IMG/VR virus record: IMGVR_UViG_3300002307_000034
Coordinates: 1 to 64,000 of that record
Source: a virus
DNA length: 64,000 bases
Direction: 5' to 3' (one strand)
This document shows positions 1 to 13,269 of the stretch, piece by piece. Position numbers and translations under genes: made by a program. Position 1 is the first letter of the stretch. Every line of letters begins with the position of its first letter. The notes beneath the pieces were generated by a model. The model made no database searches and had not been told where the DNA came from. It saw nothing but the letters and a program-made list of their open reading frames with translations.

Positions 1-243
1 CAACTCCTTAATAATAGTTTCTTTAACTTCATTAATTGCTTGACGGCGAACAATTGCCATTTCAGATTGATCTTCCCAGTTTTTATTAAACAAATCCGAC
101 AAAATCTTTCCAATATCCTGTAGCATATCTTCTTTTACAGCTTCTGCAATCATATTGCATTCTTGTTGAAATGACATTGCATAATCTGCTTCAAGCTTTG
201 AACTCCATATGACATTTTCAATTATTTCTCTTTTACTAAACAT
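1..243 (-). CDS. hypothetical protein (partial, runs off window start)
   Basis: ATG at 243, frame MFSKREIIENVIW... open to position 1; read manually. Confidence 0.6.
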   Translation of the reverse strand, partial: MFSKREIIENVIWSSKLEADYAMSFQQECNMIAEAVKEDMLQDIGKILSDLFNKNWEDQSEMAIVRRQAINEVKETIIKEL

Positions 244-8005: not shown

Positions 8006-8896
8006 TTACTTCAAAGCATTTACTAAATTAATACCGATTACATTTTGTTTAACCATAATATTTGTATATAAAGAACCGGTTAATTTAATTGTATTGTAGA
8101 TTTCTTTATAAGACAAGTTTTTAGCATTTGCAATTTTTAGCCATCCCGCTCCAAATACACCTACAGATAATGATGTTCCTGAATCTATTTTTGTTTTATT
8201 ATCGTTAATTGCAACTATCATATTTCCATTTGCAGCAAAATCTACTCGAGGTGAGTAATCTGCATACAAAGCAAGTCTTCCCTTGTCATCAATTGAGCTG
8301 ATTGCAATTGAATTTGTTAAACATGCTGGGGAAGAAATATTTTTATAATTAAAATCATTACCTGTTGAAAAAATTGATGGAATTCCAATTGAATAAAGAT
8401 TATTGATAGCATTTTGTTGAGTTGCATCTGTATAGCATGATGTAGCATTAAATAATGATAGAGGAGAAACTACAGCTCCAATATTATATTTAGAAGCATT
8501 AGAATATGCCCAGTTCAAAGCTTGTCCCAAAAGATTACTGTTACAATTAATAAAACCATTTGCACCAATAAGTGATGCACAACGAATTTCAATAATTTTT
8601 ACATTTGGATCAGTTTGTATTGCTGATGAAGCAACTTCTGTTCCATGAATCCATGCTGGAAGTATTGCCATTGATGCATTAATACTTGCTGATCCCGTTC
8701 CTTCCATAAATGTTTTACCATTTGGGCAAGAATTATATCCAGCAAAACATACTTCATAAATAATATTATTTTTAATACTATTGTTAGTCATATCTACACC
8801 TGTATCAATGATAACCATTGTTTTAGGAGTTGCTGCATATGATGTGACAGGATAAAGTGATAACAAAGAAACTGCAATAACGATCAGCTTTTTCAT
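8006..8896 (-). CDS. secreted S8 (subtilisin-like) serine peptidase
   Basis: signal peptide; VIIDTG, HGT and SGTS catalytic triad motifs. Confidence 0.85.
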   Translation of the reverse strand: MKKLIVIAVSLLSLYPVTSYAATPKTMVIIDTGVDMTNNSIKNNIIYEVCFAGYNSCPNGKTFMEGTGSASINASMAILPAWIHGTEVASSAIQTDPNVKIIEIRCASLIGANGFINCNSNLLGQALNWAYSNASKYNIGAVVSPLSLFNATSCYTDATQQNAINNLYSIGIPSIFSTGNDFNYKNISSPACLTNSIAISSIDDKGRLALYADYSPRVDFAANGNMIVAINDNKTKIDSGTSLSVGVFGAGWLKIANAKNLSYKEIYNTIKLTGSLYTNIMVKQNVIGINLVNALK

Positions 8897-8927
8897 TTTA
8901 TTCTTTCTGTTAGTAGTTATTTGATTG

Positions 8928-8999
8928 TGCCCCTAGAAGGATTCGAACCTCCGACCAAACGGGTAGAAACCGTTGACTCTTCCTCTGAGTTATAGAGGC
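8928..8999 (-). tRNA. tRNA-Arg(UCU)
   Basis: cloverleaf; anticodon arm AACGG-TTTCTAC-CCGTT; GGTTCGAATCC T-arm. Confidence 0.9.
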
Positions 9000-9007
9000 A
9001 TGAGTAT

Positions 9008-9037
9008 ATTATACTGTTTTTATATTTGTGATGTCAA
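9008..9037 (-). promoter_or_regulatory. promoter for tRNA-Arg
   Basis: TTGACA-18 nt-TATAAT, 8 nt upstream of the tRNA. Confidence 0.8.
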
Positions 9038-9040
9038 GGA

Positions 9041-9484
9041 TTAAATTATAGATGATTTAATTGTTGAAGTTAATTGCCAATCCCATTTTTTATGCATGGA
9101 ATGTCTAATTTCAATATCGCTTGCAATACCAATTTCTTTTACTGCTTCTGCTGCTTCATGCACAGCTAACAAATCATTAATTACAGCTTCATTTGAAACC
9201 AAAAAGCTTTCAATCTGATCTTTTGGATTTGCTCCCGCATAAACTTGACCAATTGTTCTATTTGTTACAAAATCAGTTAATTGAAATGGAGCGGTTTGCC
9301 CAAGTTTTCTAATCATCTCAGAAATATCATCAATAGAATCATATACATCTTCATAAATTTCTAAAAATTTGGCATGCATTTCAGGAAATAGCATTCCCTC
9401 TACATTCCAATGATATCCGTGAATTTGAAAATAAGCAGTAACTACGTCTGCTTGTAAAATTTTAAGTCTTTGTACTAAATCCAT
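9041..9484 (-). CDS. dps: Dps-family ferritin-like protein
   Basis: HGYHWNVEG..F.EMH..F.E.Y......D.ISE ferroxidase motifs; H.K..W near the C-terminus. Confidence 0.9.
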   Translation of the reverse strand: MDLVQRLKILQADVVTAYFQIHGYHWNVEGMLFPEMHAKFLEIYEDVYDSIDDISEMIRKLGQTAPFQLTDFVTNRTIGQVYAGANPKDQIESFLVSNEAVINDLLAVHEAAEAVKEIGIASDIEIRHSMHKKWDWQLTSTIKSSII

Positions 9485-9527
9485 TGTAACTCCTTAGAAA
9501 GCTGATCTGCTATTTACTATTATACCA

Positions 9528-9752
9528 TTAATTGCTTGATTGGGATGGCTTTTCATTAATATAATGACGTTCATCCACAATTTCATATGCTTGACTATTT
9601 AATTTGTTTTGATTTTTATTATAATGGTGACCACAAAACATTAATTCGCCCGTCAATAATTTAACAGAAACAAAAGCCTGTGCTTGACATGAATCACAGC
9701 GATCTTGTAATGTTAAAATACGTTCTGTTGTTTTTTCTTGTTCAAGTATCAT
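9528..9752 (-). CDS. small actinobacterial-type zinc-binding protein
   Basis: LT..DRCDSC.AQA.V...GEL.FCGHH. Confidence 0.7.
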   Translation of the reverse strand: MILEQEKTTERILTLQDRCDSCQAQAFVSVKLLTGELMFCGHHYNKNQNKLNSQAYEIVDERHYINEKPSQSSN

Positions 9753-9791
9753 ACCTTAAGTATATCCCTTTATGTTAGTAGTTACAAGTTG

Positions 9792-9864
9792 TGTCCCCAG
9801 CAGGTCTCGATCCTGCGACCCGCAGATTAAAAGTCTGCTGCTCTACCAACTGAGCTATAGGGAC
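9792..9864 (-). tRNA. tRNA-Lys(UUU)
   Basis: cloverleaf; GCAGA-CTTTTAA-TCTGC. Confidence 0.92.
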
Positions 9865-9865
9865 A

Positions 9866-9996
9866 TGTCAGATCAGTTTATCTTTTACCACACTGTAAGG
9901 TCTATAACCGAGTGTTCTGACAACACCGTGTAGGTTGCTCTAGAAACCCCTACATATTAGCGTAAAGCCTAAACCATTGAAGGCCTATACTAATGT
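9866..9996 (-). ncRNA. candidate structured RNA 'C' between tRNA-Leu and tRNA-Lys
   Basis: three consecutive stem-loops (ATTAG/CTAAT, TGTAGG/CCTACA, TGTCAGA/TCTGACA) with nested helices; no credible ORF. Confidence 0.45.
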
Positions 9997-10003
9997 TACT
10001 ATG

Positions 10004-10076
10004 TGCCCCAAGTTGGATTCGAACCAACGCTGTATGGATTTTAAGTCCACTATCTCTACCACTGGATTACTGGGGC
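10004..10076 (-). tRNA. tRNA-Leu(UAA), short variable arm
   Basis: GTGGA-CTTAAAA-TCCAT; 5-nt variable loop; 73 nt. Confidence 0.9.
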
Positions 10077-10118
10077 CAGTACACGCCTGTTTTTTCTATA
10101 TGTATATATACAAAATTT

Positions 10119-10850
10119 TTAGATTTGCTTATAATCATTAGTTCCTCTATATACATTAAAAAATTCTTTTGTAAAAATTGGAATTTTATGCAACATGCCA
10201 ACTAGTTGCCAATAATTTTCATATACTTTTATTTGTGTTTCATATGCTTTTAAAGCATTAATTCTTTTATTTATTACTTCTGAAAAATCTATTTCTAAAT
10301 CTATTTTTTTATAAGCACTAACCCAAAATGGATCATTTTCCCATACAGGATTATTTTTTTGTTCAATAACCGTAAACCAAATATTGGGAATTTTATATAT
10401 AGAGTCTAAAATGTCTAACGAGGACATTGTTGCATTGTGAACAGTTATATGGTCTGGATGTCCGCTCCAACCATTTTGATCATATGTTATTAATAAATCT
10501 GGCTTAATTGATACTAAAATATCGGACAATTGTTTGGATAAAACTTCAATGCCTACAAATTTTAAAGATCCTTTAATTGGTACCCTGTTTGGAACCGTGT
10601 CATCATATGGACCAATAAATATATGTTTTGACACGCCCAAAGCTTCCATTGCTTTTGAATGTTCTTTTAATAATTTATTTTTAAATTCAATAGTACCAGC
10701 TGGGTAATCATCTAAATAACTATTTCCACTCATGCCATTAGAAAAATTTATAACAGTAACATCATGACCAAGATTTACAAATTTTGCAATAGTCCCGCCA
10801 GTTGTTATTGTTTCGTCATCTGGATGACAATGTACAAATACTACTTTCAT
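10119..10850 (-). CDS. PIG-L/LmbE-family deacetylase (MshB/Mca-like)
   Basis: VFVHCHPDDETITTGGTIA and TYD..G..GHPDH motifs. Confidence 0.85.
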   Translation of the reverse strand: MKVVFVHCHPDDETITTGGTIAKFVNLGHDVTVINFSNGMSGNSYLDDYPAGTIEFKNKLLKEHSKAMEALGVSKHIFIGPYDDTVPNRVPIKGSLKFVGIEVLSKQLSDILVSIKPDLLITYDQNGWSGHPDHITVHNATMSSLDILDSIYKIPNIWFTVIEQKNNPVWENDPFWVSAYKKIDLEIDFSEVINKRINALKAYETQIKVYENYWQLVGMLHKIPIFTKEFFNVYRGTNDYKQI

Positions 10851-10866
10851 TTTTCTCCTTAGTTTG

Positions 10867-10937
10867 CTCCCTGACCTGGATTCGAACCAAGATACCCGCC
10901 TCCAAAGGGCGGTGTCCTACCGTTAGACGATCTGGGA
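10867..10937 (-). tRNA. tRNA-Gln(UUG)
   Basis: CCGCC-CTTTGGA-GGCGG; one acceptor-stem mismatch. Confidence 0.88.
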
Positions 10938-10944
10938 ATGTAAG

Positions 10945-11018
10945 CGATCCGTATCGGACTTGAACCGACGGCCTTTGCCGTGACAGGGCAACGCTCTAAC
11001 CAACTGAGCTAACGGACC
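10945..11018 (-). tRNA. tRNA-Asp(GUC)
   Basis: TTGCC-CTGTCAC-GGCAA. Confidence 0.92.
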
Positions 11019-11019
11019 A

Positions 11020-11096
11020 TGGTGGAACAGGTAGGACTTGAACCTACGATTACCGAATTATGAGTTCGGGGCTTTGACCAACTAAGCTACTGTTCC
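11020..11096 (-). tRNA. tRNA with CAU anticodon (Ile2-like or elongator Met), CCA encoded
   Basis: CCGAA-CTCATAA-TTCGG; G1-C72 paired and no three G-C pairs in the anticodon stem, so not initiator. Confidence 0.88.
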
Positions 11097-11097
11097 G

Positions 11098-11172
11098 TAC
11101 TCCAAGAAGGACTTGAACCTTCAGCCTTCAGTATATAAGACTGATGCTCTCACCAAGTTGAGCTATTGGAGC
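11098..11172 (-). tRNA. tRNA-Ile(UAU)
   Basis: TCAGT-CTTATAT-ACTGA; full cloverleaf; A73 discriminator. Confidence 0.85.
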
Positions 11173-11174
11173 AA

Positions 11175-11338
11175 GTGCTAGCCATGGATTTAGGATTCAA
11201 ACCTTAAACCTCCCGCTAGCTGTTGTACCTAGTTCTCGCTTTATCCTATTATCCCTGGGTCTGAACACTTTCATAATAGTGCTGGAACATTGTCGGATTC
11301 GGTACAACTATCTCCATATAAGTTGTTCAGACTTATAT
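11175..11338 (-). ncRNA. candidate structured RNA 'B' (pseudoknot plus tRNA-like 3' minihelix)
   Basis: 8-bp hairpin whose loop CUGAACA is complementary to a downstream UGUUCAG; GUUGUACC/GGUACAAC helix; GCUAGC-closed arm with GG-UUUGAAU-CC loop. Confidence 0.6.
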
Positions 11339-11344
11339 TTTGAG

Positions 11345-11417
11345 CTGGGATGACAGGGATCGAACCTGTGACATTTCGATTAACAGTCGAACGCTCTGCC
11401 AGCTGAGCTACATCCCA
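11345..11417 (-). tRNA. tRNA-Asn(GUU)
   Basis: TTCGA-CTGTTAA-TCGAA. Confidence 0.92.
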
Positions 11418-11422
11418 AAAAG

Positions 11423-11540
11423 GTACGACAAGCAATTCCATCTGCACAGGCGTTGAGGTCTATTGCACCACAAACGCTTTAGCCGAGTATGTTTATATGT
11501 AACTATAACATCATCCTAAGATTAGTGTTGCTTGCCGTAC
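11423..11540 (-). ncRNA. candidate structured RNA 'A' (~118 nt, multi-way junction)
   Basis: 13-bp closing stem GUACGGCAAGCAA/UUGCUUGUCGUAC starting at the predicted TSS; two internal arms; followed by a short U run. Confidence 0.6.
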
Positions 11541-11546
11541 TGTATT

Positions 11547-11576
11547 AGTATATCAGGCGGTTATTTACAATGTCAA
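11547..11576 (-). promoter_or_regulatory. promoter of the ncRNA/tRNA array
   Basis: TTGACA-18 nt-TATACT. Confidence 0.8.
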
Positions 11577-11999
11577 TTACTTGATCTTGATTGTTTTTGG
11601 CTTTTTATCCTCTGGAACAATTCTTTCAATTGTTACAGCAAGCATACCATTTTCAAATTCAGCACCAGTAACTTCCATATATTCACCTAGTGCAAATGAA
11701 CGAGTAAAAGAACGAGTAGCGATTCCTTTATGTTTAAAATCTGCTTCTTGTTTTTCTTTTTCACCCTTTACAATTAAATTTTTATTATCTACTGATACTG
11801 TAAGGTCGGATCTATTAAATCCCGCCAAGGCAATTTCAACAAGATATGTATCTTCATCTTGTTTAATTACATTGTATGGTGGATAATTATCCTGTTGTGA
11901 TGATTGGCTCCATGTTGTAATATTAGGTTGAAAACCAATAAAAAATGGGTCATTTAGAAGTGAATTCCAAAGCCCATTGTATGTGTATGTTGTATTCAT
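11577..11999 (-). CDS. small heat-shock protein (Hsp20/IbpA family)
   Basis: YPPYNV...EIALAGF...H.GIA.RSF.RSF.L...A.FENG.L; start moved to the ATG at 11999, behind AAGGAG. Confidence 0.93.
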   Translation of the reverse strand: MNTTYTYNGLWNSLLNDPFFIGFQPNITTWSQSSQQDNYPPYNVIKQDEDTYLVEIALAGFNRSDLTVSVDNKNLIVKGEKEKQEADFKHKGIATRSFTRSFALGEYMEVTGAEFENGMLAVTIERIVPEDKKPKTIKIK

Positions 12000-12056
12000 A
12001 CTATTCTCCTTTTCTTTAAGCAAGTTAGTTTAATTTAGATCCCCGAAGGCAATCTT
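12000..12056 (-). promoter_or_regulatory. ROSE-like RNA thermometer candidate in the hsp20 5' UTR
   Basis: 5' hairpin with UUCG loop, then CUUGCUU pairing with SD AAGGAG with a bulged G. Confidence 0.55.
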
Positions 12057-12078
12057 TATATATTATATCACAAATTGG

Positions 12079-13269
12079 TTAGTCTGTCCAGCACCATACA
12101 TTAATATCTGAATAACCAGCATCAATTATTTTCTTTTTAAGATCTTCATATATATTCCATGAAAATATAACTATGTCTGTAGGATTACATTCAAGCATTT
12201 TTTCTAAACTTACAACAGGTATTTGTGCATCAGGAATGTACCTGCCCTGTTTTTCAAAAGAATCATCTGCTATATATTTTATATCATTAAAATTTAATTT
12301 TGAAAAATTAATAACAGTTGATGCTTTGCCAGAGGCTGCGTATCCACAAATAATTTTTCCTTCATTATTAAGATTTTTAATTTTGTTATAAAAATTTGTT
12401 ATTTTATGATTAATTCGATCACTAAATTCATTCCATTTAGATTCACTTAACAAGCCACCATTTATTTCTTCATTAATTGTTTTTTCTACGCTTGAAAGCC
12501 TATTCTTTGTCCTAGAAATTAAATATCTATTACTTCCTCCATGCATTTGATATTCTTTAACATCAAATACATGCATTCCAAATTTACTTACAAGTTTAGA
12601 TACTGCATTTGTTGAAAGATATGAATAATGTTCATGATAAATGTTATCAAAATGATCATCATTTAAAATATGCATTATTGTTGGATTTTCAATACTTACA
12701 ATTGTTTCATCATTAGAAAGAATTGAAATTCCATTCATAAAATCTTGAATATTTGGCACATGAGCAAAAACATTTTTTGCAACTATAAGTTTAGGATAGC
12801 CTTTAATTCTTAAAATTTCTTTAGCAAGTTCTGATCCAAAAAAATCATTTATAGTAGGAATACCATCGCATATTGCATACATTGATATATTTTTGGCGGG
12901 ATCAACTCCCAAAACATCTATATTTTCTTTTTGAAACATTTTTAAAAGATAACCATCGTTACTTGCTAATTCTAAAACCCAATCTTTTTCTCCAAAACTT
13001 ATTTTAGATAAACATTCATTTACAAATTCTTTAGAATGTTTTAAAAATGTTTCACTGTATGATGTTCTAAACCCGTAAAAACTAAATAATCTAGAGGGAT
13101 CTAGGTCCAATGAAATTTGACCTAACCCGCAATCTGAGCAAACCATCATTTTTGTTTCAAATGTTTCAGCTTTGTGATTTTTATCTTTAGATAATTCATT
13201 AACAATTGGTAAAGAACCTAAATCAATGCCAGTAAATTGCTTTTGACTGTTACACGCACGACATGCCAT
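12079..13269 (-). CDS. NDP-hexose C-methyltransferase (class I SAM-dependent, Zn-binding N-terminus)
   Basis: CRAC...CSDC, VLELASNDG, NVFAHVP, IYHEH.SY, HGGS.R, GYAASGKA; likely start MACRAC. Confidence 0.88.
   Translation of the reverse strand: MACRACNSQKQFTGIDLGSLPIVNELSKDKNHKAETFETKMMVCSDCGLGQISLDLDPSRLFSFYGFRTSYSETFLKHSKEFVNECLSKISFGEKDWVLELASNDGYLLKMFQKENIDVLGVDPAKNISMYAICDGIPTINDFFGSELAKEILRIKGYPKLIVAKNVFAHVPNIQDFMNGISILSNDETIVSIENPTIMHILNDDHFDNIYHEHYSYLSTNAVSKLVSKFGMHVFDVKEYQMHGGSNRYLISRTKNRLSSVEKTINEEINGGLLSESKWNEFSDRINHKITNFYNKIKNLNNEGKIICGYAASGKASTVINFSKLNFNDIKYIADDSFEKQGRYIPDAQIPVVSLEKMLECNPTDIVIFSWNIYEDLKKKIIDAGYSDINVWCWTD

Follow-up and report, generated by a model that had tools for sequence, protein, structure and literature searches.

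A widespread family of predicted structured small RNAs at the tRNA arrays of uncultured freshwater phages

Between a small heat-shock protein gene and the first tRNA gene of a phage tRNA array lies a 118-nt stretch that has a promoter at one end and a tRNA at the other. The question raised by this locus is whether the stretch, here called RNA A, encodes a small RNA in its own right and, if so, what that RNA might do. The locus comes from IMG/VR record IMGVR_UViG_3300002307_000034 (105 kb, 97% complete, 33% G+C). Positions 1-64,000 of this record were analyzed and are referred to as the window; all coordinates refer to this 64,000-nt stretch. Sequence comparisons place RNA A in a widespread family of structured small RNAs, so far undescribed, that occur at or inside the tRNA arrays of uncultured freshwater phages. 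The family RNAs are approximately 75-130 nt long, and their existence as discrete stable molecules is inferred in the absence of transcript data.

Promoter, neighborhood and predicted fold of RNA A

RNA A occupies positions 11423-11540 on the minus strand, as do all of the features described in this section unless stated otherwise. The hsp20 gene (11577-11999) is immediately upstream of the promoter and is a recurrent neighbor of the family. The -35 hexamer TTGACA (11576-11571) abuts the hsp20 stop codon and is followed by an 18-nt spacer ending in TGA and by TATACT (11552-11547); the extended -10 element TGATATACT spans 11547-11555. The -35 hexamer has equal spacing in 12 distinct family members, and in relatives TATAAT lies 6-7 nt ahead of the first stem base. 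With its TG, the promoter scored 11 of 12 and was among the top three promoter-like sites in the scanned region (8500-12500). The predicted +1 is the G at 11540, 7 nt past the -10 hexamer, which is also the first base of the closing helix, P1. A preliminary description of the window had proposed this TTGACA-18-TATACT promoter, with a start site at about 11540 where the stem begins, and both re-inspection of the sequence and the promoter scan bore the proposal out.

Downstream of P1, a CUUUU tail (11418-11422) separates RNA A from tRNA-Asn(GUU) (11344-11417), the first tRNA of the array, which was identified by ARAGORN and the tRNA model. This tRNA has no separate promoter and must therefore be reached by read-through from the RNA A promoter. 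It is followed by a spacer, termed B, and by four further tRNAs; eight flanking tRNAs were recovered by both ARAGORN and RF00005. P1 and the tail together could form a leaky terminator. Of the marks of an intrinsic terminator, a U run is present, P1 being followed by CUUUU(U), but the helix encloses 92 nt instead of a 3-8-nt loop, and a simple terminator scan made no call at P1 plus CUUUU. In line with the preliminary description, which saw no ORF in it, RNA A contained no ORF of at least 30 aa; the ORFs listed for the region only span the tRNA or the promoter. A search with covariance model R1 (described below) found one copy of RNA A in the whole 105-kb phage record.

Several accessory-type genes are interleaved with tRNAs on the minus strand at 8006-10850 of the window: a PIG-L/LmbE-like deacetylase, DUF7455, a Dps/ferritin-like protein and a secreted subtilase. 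We take the PIG-L and DUF7455 neighbors as a weak suggestion of an actinobacterial host; with the Dps-like neighbor included, they amount to only a hint that the host belongs to the freshwater Actinobacteria. On the plus strand, the Plastid-ycf2 model (RF04354) gave matches of 20-50 bits antisense to several tRNA genes of the window, and of up to 59 bits in related loci, every score being below the gathering score of 65.7. These matches were dismissed as an artefact of a model that resembles antisense tRNA and correspond to no real element.

The predicted fold of RNA A is closed by P1, in which the 5' strand GUACGGCAAGCAA (11528-11540) pairs with the 3' strand UUGCUUGUCGUAC (11423-11435) over 13 bp, including one G-U. 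Among 33 aligned sequences 98% of P1 cells were paired, with covariation at 11 of 12 pairs. The minimum free energy was -35.7 kcal/mol, compared with -25.5 +/- 3.1 kcal/mol for 200 shuffles, none of which folded as well (z = -3.3), and RNA A scored 31.8 bits (E = 2e-6) with R1. The arrangement originally described, a 13-bp stem with one G-U closing a 118-nt RNA ahead of CUUUU and tRNA-Asn, was thus recovered in full, and the layout recurs in many contigs.

Besides the closing stem, the minimum free energy fold includes a AUGUUAUA/UAUA(A)ACAU arm and a GCGUU/AACGC arm. The inner arms of the preliminary description coincide only in part with those conserved in the family: its UUAG/CUAA pairing is subtype-specific, and most relatives have other hairpins where its 3' arm stands. 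This 3' hairpin, GCGUU...AACGC (RNA nt 64-91; 11450-11477), was common only to RNA A and three relatives (L002, L102 and L105). The adjoining stretch GUGCAG..GGAA beside the P1 3' strand (11436-11447) is semi-conserved, and its GUGC and GAAU recur in all subtypes.

Two short segments of the 5' half stand out. Box 1, CUUAGGA (RNA nt 21-27; 11514-11520), is family-invariant and is the reverse complement of 23S rRNA 1923-1929. Box 2, GUUAUAGUUAC (RNA nt 32-42; 11499-11509), forms the apical part of hairpin P2 and is the exact reverse complement of E. coli 23S rRNA 1910-1920, the helix 69 loop; the UAGUUAC within it is invariant in all family members. In the predicted ensemble Box 2 was mostly unpaired (mean P of about 0.7 vs 0.33 over the whole RNA), and Box 1 was partly base-paired inside RNA A.

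Family membership, covariation and gene organization

The two relatives found initially, L002 and L003, were reached through the neighboring hsp20 protein, and both have the order hsp20, promoter, RNA, tRNA-Asn. In L002, which is 88% identical over the RNA, a C-G pair of the stem is replaced by U-A, a compensatory change; L003 has retained the stem and the 5' half and differs in the 3' half. Other relatives were retrieved from IMG/VR and metagenome contigs by DNA patterns drawn from the shared 5' half; the totals are lower bounds, the family being larger. More than 70 distinct members were found: 39 distinct sequences when the closing stem was required, plus at least 34 distinct short-type sequences.

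Across members P1 is 11-17 bp long and joins the 5' and 3' ends. Its sequence varies by lineage with complementarity kept (e.g., GUACGGUAAGCAA, GGCUAUAAACGA, GGGUUACACAC and GUCCCCCACAGG). The interior of the RNA holds 17 invariant nucleotides. The fixed motifs are CUUAGGAU, on the joining strand and the 5' side of P2, and UAGUUAC in the P2 hairpin loop; in long types the P2 apex is AUAGUUACA, which contains UAGUUAC. In P2 the 5' strand is constant, and variation falls on the strand opposite. The subtypes are distinguished by their remaining hairpins. The commonest long type has two extra hairpins, P3 (loop GUAAGA) and P4, in place of which the window type, the long subtype to which RNA A belongs, has the GCGUU/AACGC hairpin; the short types (75-90 nt) have a single small extra hairpin.

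A plain MAFFT alignment analyzed with RNAalifold recovered P1, with changes on both sides in 11 of 12 pairs. Covariance model R1, built from nine type-2 sequences, aligned 33 distinct members. In that alignment 90% of cells were paired, as against 72% for shuffles and 25-43% for slid-partner controls, and changes on both sides were seen in 23 of 35 pairs (P1 11/12, P3 5/5, P4 3/4). The R1 alignment is fitted to its model and so is biased towards the proposed structure. Frequent G-U pairs and the absence of A.C mismatches indicate that the transcribed strand is the tRNA strand. The preliminary description had named a lack of structural conservation as one of two grounds for rejecting the RNA; conservation is clearly present, P1 covarying at 11 of 12 pairs.

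No Rfam 15 model (4227 models) overlapped 11423-11540 at E values up to 10, and the uncharacterised status initially given to RNA A stands. The Rfam matches on nine loci carrying other subtypes were to tRNAs only. Blastn of two family members against 50,697 GenBank phage records returned no match. Among 120 pattern matches listed in bacterial genomes only one was a true member, on a contig of a metagenome-assembled genome (L234), where it sits in a phage-like tRNA array. As far as found, neither the family RNA nor any phage RNA pairing with rRNA has been described in the literature.

The gene organization was tabulated for the 39 distinct members. Twelve were headed by a sigma-70-type promoter of the form TTGAC(A/T)-16..19-TATAAT-like that ended 5-8 nt before P1; a tRNA lay within 5-34 nt downstream in ten of these twelve, and tRNA-Asn was the neighbor in nine. 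Nineteen members were internal to tRNA arrays, beginning 0-2 nt past one tRNA and ending 3-10 nt ahead of the next, and three came after tRNA-Met and ended in a U-rich tail. All neighboring tRNAs were on the same strand as the RNA. Every promoter-headed member had a C and a U-rich tail at the 3' end of P1; the internal members had no U tail. Short types had TGnTATAAT -10 boxes, U-rich tails and often a fresh promoter directly behind, and in L002 a second TTGACA promoter lies between the RNA and its tRNAs. A U-rich tail followed by a fresh promoter, as in L002 and the short types, marks these copies as self-contained units. As far as can be read from the DNA, some phages carry the RNA as a self-contained gene and others as a cassette within a tRNA polycistron. 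In two IMG/VR contigs (L104 and L113), CUUUAAUUAAAGG and a protein gene come after the promoter-driven A-type RNA, with the tRNA array about 600 nt beyond, showing that the link to tRNAs is frequent and not obligatory. An hsp20 homologue lay at most 150 nt upstream in 20 of the 62 members picked by the RNA pattern alone.

The release of the RNA as a discrete stable molecule is inferred, as are the routes to its ends. The 5' end would arise by initiation or by RNase P-type cleavage at the base of a 12-bp helix resembling an acceptor/T stack, and the 3' end by leaky termination at P1 and the U tail or by 5' processing of the next tRNA. In its dimensions the 12-13-bp terminal helix with its unpaired C matches a tRNA acceptor/T stack, and RNase P acts on non-tRNA helices such as pre-4.5S RNA and phage C4 RNA (PMC11143913). 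The size of the helix and these precedents suggest, by inference only, that internal copies are excised by the tRNA-processing machinery. The earlier proposal of a stand-alone small RNA gains support from the covarying P1, from the promoters of its own and from the members with their own U tail and a fresh promoter behind, although the transcript itself remains inferred.

The preliminary description had further proposed that the array is a cassette in which tRNAs punctuate uncharacterised RNAs. The 19 members between same-strand tRNAs support this proposal, as do relatives of the two other window spacers in other A-type arrays. Spacer C (9865-10002, minus strand) separates tRNA-Leu from tRNA-Lys. 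An 84%-identical relative of 135 nt occurs in another phage tRNA array (L140:5115-5248), about 150 nt downstream of the A-type RNA of that contig; the relative identifies C as a conserved element and not a junk spacer. Spacer B (11173-11343, minus strand), between tRNA-Asn and tRNA-Ile, has a 76%-identical partial relative of 87 nt (L132:443-528) just downstream of the A-type RNA in L132. It folds with z = -3.2 and has a T-arm-like GGUUUGAAUCC hairpin at its end. L002 and L003, the closest relatives, lack spacer B, and in them tRNA-Asn directly precedes the next tRNA.

A related element containing both boxes was found past hsp20 in six contigs (L016, L017, L028, L038, L044 and L061), in which the order of the boxes is swapped relative to the A family. 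Here a GGGC-(U/CG)AAUAGUUAC-GCCU hairpin with a UAGUUAC loop is followed by UUAGGAUA, the boxes being 2 nt apart, and the element sits in the 5' leader of a small Zn-ribbon gene. The swapped boxes cannot pair collinearly with 23S rRNA, and the swapped order suggests that the boxes are recognised as separate modules. The first ~130 nt after hsp20 in these contigs comprise a TATAAT box, a covarying hairpin (GUCCAUG..AUGGAC), the GGGC hairpin and UU(A/G)GGAUA; then come a ACCUGAGCA...AAACUGCUCA motif and the Shine-Dalgarno sequence of the small gene, which starts MPxY(D/E)YKC. A separate motif, GACCU(A/G)G(G/A)CAUGUC..AAACUG(C/U)CC, recurs within 110 nt after hsp20 (e.g., in L010, L012, L031-L033 and L045-L050), with a TATAAT box before it and an AGGAG Shine-Dalgarno sequence just after it. 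It resembles a conserved hairpin in the 5' leader of the gene behind hsp20.

Complementarity to 23S rRNA helix 69 and competing explanations

The invariant 19-mer of the long types, CUUAGGAUGUUAUAGUUAC, is complementary to 23S rRNA 1910-1929 (checked against E. coli rrlH). The pairing consists of 11 Watson-Crick pairs from G1910 to C1920, which take in the whole helix 69 loop and its closing pair, a bulged G1921, and eight pairs (one G-U) to G1929. From 1900 to 1962 the 23S sequence does not differ between E. coli, Psychromonas, Clostridium and Formosa; over 1900-1973 there is one difference among the four, a C in place of U at position 1963 of Clostridium. Motifs that are invariant across lineages with different P1, P3 and P4 thus face a universally invariant target, which was counted in favor of helix 69.

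Using RNAduplex with the 19-nt core against all three E. coli rRNAs, the best site was 23S 1909-1930 at -24.1 kcal/mol, with all 19 nt paired and one bulged target base. None of 300 composition-matched shuffles reached this energy (mean -15.3, sd 1.7). The 22-nt core of the window's own RNA found the same site, again with 0 of 300 shuffles. A two-arm score counting Watson-Crick pairs only was 17-18, compared with a maximum of 16 among 541 random 118-nt phage windows, and by net gain on cofolding the helix 69 window ranked first of 108 rRNA windows in seven of eight long-type members. Under laxer scoring that admitted G-U pairs, 3% of random 118-nt windows matched the consensus score, and an ungapped position-weight-matrix scan of the rRNA match gave p = 0.06.

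The short types keep only UAGUUAC and either CUUAGG or CUUGGG (7 + 6 complementary nt). Helix 69 was the best rRNA site for two of three short-type cores, and the duplex energies of the three cores were not beyond those of shuffles (p = 0.13, 0.27 and 0.02). Cofolding of short-type members with rRNA windows gave no net gain; kissing complexes are outside what cofolding can model. An nhmmer profile test was flawed, its decoy loci having been chosen with the same motif, and its Y profile missed the expected site.

Other targets and readings of the conserved segments were rejected. The 3' domain (GCCAUUCGUGCAG..GGAAU) appeared by eye to be strikingly antisense to both strands of 23S helix 70 (1937-1976). 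This candidate was dropped: weighted position-weight-matrix scans with two independent alignments gave p = 0.2-0.4 with top matches elsewhere, and a chain-of-5-mers score was no better than that of shuffles. As regards tRNAs, 362 distinct ones from phages were without GUAACUA, and complements to the core reached 8 nt at most. Pairing of CUUAGGAUG with the 16S anti-Shine-Dalgarno sequence, a mini-ORF (AUG UUA UAG) and an anticodon-loop mimic were not kept across members.

The complementarity leads to a tentative proposal, one that could well be wrong, in which the RNA docks in trans on free 50S subunits at helix 69; binding is inferred and there are no binding data. Helix 69 forms intersubunit bridge B2a. 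In the proposed sequence of events, the RNA would act in trans on the large ribosomal subunit, its exposed P2 loop kissing the helix 69 loop (G1910-U1917). In the long subtype the pairing could extend over 19 nt to C1924-G1929. The docked RNA would occupy the bridge-forming element on free 50S subunits and in this way may affect subunit joining or translation in the infected cell, with inhibition the probable effect. A more specific version, in which a phage small RNA pairs with helix 69 and the linker to helix 70 at bridge B2a of free or nascent 50S subunits, and thereby controls subunit joining or shields or exposes a nuclease-sensitive interface, is doubtful and likewise rests on inferred binding. 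Helix/loop 70 is cut by MazF-mt3 and MazF-mt6 in free 50S subunits and not in 70S ribosomes (PMC5408214), from which it follows that the helix 69/70 interface is accessible and vulnerable in the free subunit. Kulik 2017, as cited in two articles (PMC12828698, PMC7038079), reported that translation and the growth of E. coli are blocked by a synthetic PNA directed against helix 69. Further points count against the helix 69 proposal. The full 19-bp pairing needs both P2 and the closing pair of helix 69 to be opened; Box 1 is in part already base-paired inside the RNA; bacterial and phage RNAs are not known to pair with rRNA; and a phage would be blocking ribosomes that it needs, for which the motive is unexplained.

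The main rival is that the RNA binds or sequesters a protein, the UAGUUAC loop and the CUUAGGAU strand forming a two-module site for a phage or host protein and the 23S match being fortuitous. Such a partner could be the small heat-shock protein encoded alongside, or else a translation factor, a nuclease or an RNA chaperone. This explanation is itself open to considerable doubt. The occurrence of the boxes in either order around a hairpin, on two scaffolds, fits modular recognition better than collinear pairing; hsp20 is directly upstream in the 20 members noted above, and the rRNA complementarity of the short types is weak. However, no candidate protein is common to all contexts, many members lying within pure tRNA arrays, and motifs that stay invariant while the other helices differ would need an equally invariant protein surface. 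The complementarity of the long-type core to helix 69, which exceeded all 300 of 300 shuffles, also counts against it. The RNA might instead act only in cis, as a leader, punctuation or leaky terminator that ends hsp20 transcripts, meters transcription of the array and offers a processing helix, with no function after release. The placement between hsp20 and tRNAs, the C and U-rich tail after P1 in all promoter-driven members and the lack of a promoter for the window tRNAs are what such an element would show. It is nevertheless unlikely, since the internal copies have no U tail and sit between tRNAs, a place at which termination would do harm, and behind stand-alone copies there is a new promoter or no tRNA. 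A terminator also needs neither 17 invariant internal nucleotides nor covarying inner hairpins, and the scan made no terminator call at RNA A.

A third explanation takes its cue from the tRNA context: the RNA would be a tRNA-like or Y-RNA-like decoy, processed like a tRNA, that soaks up an anti-phage factor (anticodon nucleases, tRNA-targeting toxins) or partners Ro. Its location in tRNA arrays, the terminal helix of acceptor/T-stack length with the unpaired C behind it, and the other stable RNAs known in phage tRNA clusters (T4 rnaC and rnaD) can be cited for a decoy. It was judged quite improbable, given that ARAGORN and the Rfam tRNA and YrlA models had no match at A, that a T-arm and an anticodon-like 7-nt loop are missing, and that a TROVE/Ro gene and a CCA-adding enzyme are absent from this 97%-complete phage. 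Among partner genes sought in the phage record, RNA ligase (PF09414) and ribosomal protein S21 were absent as well. The suggestion in the preliminary description that Ro60 might be a partner accordingly found no support. A host-encoded Ro is not excluded by the absence of Ro/Rsr (TROVE, PF05731) from the phage record, for which control genomes were positive; the sequence of the closing stem is not conserved, and so RNA A has no Ro-type binding site. The least credible of the explanations, and a highly improbable one, is a small ribozyme or ligand-binding RNA built from conserved junction and loop nucleotides on covarying helices. Invariant unpaired nucleotides among covarying stems do resemble catalytic or aptamer cores, but there was no Rfam ribozyme or riboswitch match at E values up to 10, the 3' half is swapped wholesale between subtypes, and the short types are reduced to a three-way junction.

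Relation to known RNAs and significance

In context, the nearest analogues are T4 species 1 and 2 (rnaC, 139 nt, and rnaD, 119 nt), which, like RNA A, are small RNAs on the tRNA strand beside phage tRNA genes. RNA A has the position typical of the T4 RNAs, being encoded on the tRNA strand where a phage tRNA cluster starts; its accumulation as a stable RNA is inferred. There is no shared sequence or structure. An R1 search of the T4 locus with filters off gave no match on rnaC or rnaD, and the folds differ: rnaC carries a tRNA-like T-arm (CCGGGUUCGAAUCCCGG), which RNA A lacks, and rnaC and rnaD have neither the invariant loop nor the long end-to-end closing helix of the RNA A family. Small stable RNAs of phage tRNA clusters have been known since T4, and to our knowledge none has an assigned function.

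YrlA (RF02553) resembles RNA A in its size (~100-120 nt) and in having its ends paired in a long stem around a modular interior, and some YrlA RNAs are phage-encoded. In contrast to YrlA, RNA A has no tRNA-like module; RF02553 had no match at RNA A, and its weak matches lay on tRNA genes. GOLLD and ROOL are likewise phage-borne structured non-coding RNAs of unknown function, often near tRNA genes. At roughly 600 to over 800 nt they are ~5-8 times larger than RNA A, and their existing Rfam models did not match it. CopA/CopT and RNAI/RNAII share with RNA A a short hairpin recognition loop complementary to the loop of a target hairpin. They target mRNAs or primers of their own replicon, whereas the putative target of RNA A is a universal host rRNA, to which binding is inferred. 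The anti-helix 69 PNA, which inhibits translation and growth, is an artificial antisense oligomer against that same target.

The family is thus an addition to the stable small RNAs of phage tRNA clusters, and no described family includes it. It provides a large, diverse and well-structured case with several subtypes, clean covariation and defined promoters and ends, the ends being inferred. Its members are plentiful in lake viromes, and neither Rfam nor the genomes of cultured phages contain them. For RNA A itself, expression, ends, stability and function are all inferred without transcript data. Should the ribosome idea not hold, the family would still have a specific recognition element in its invariant UAGUUAC hairpin. 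Should the helix 69 mechanism prove correct, it would be new in kind, and no earlier natural antisense RNA directed against rRNA would be known from bacteria or phages. Binding to helix 69, if true, would represent a new viral way to manipulate ribosomes and a natural counterpart of antibacterial anti-helix 69 oligomers.
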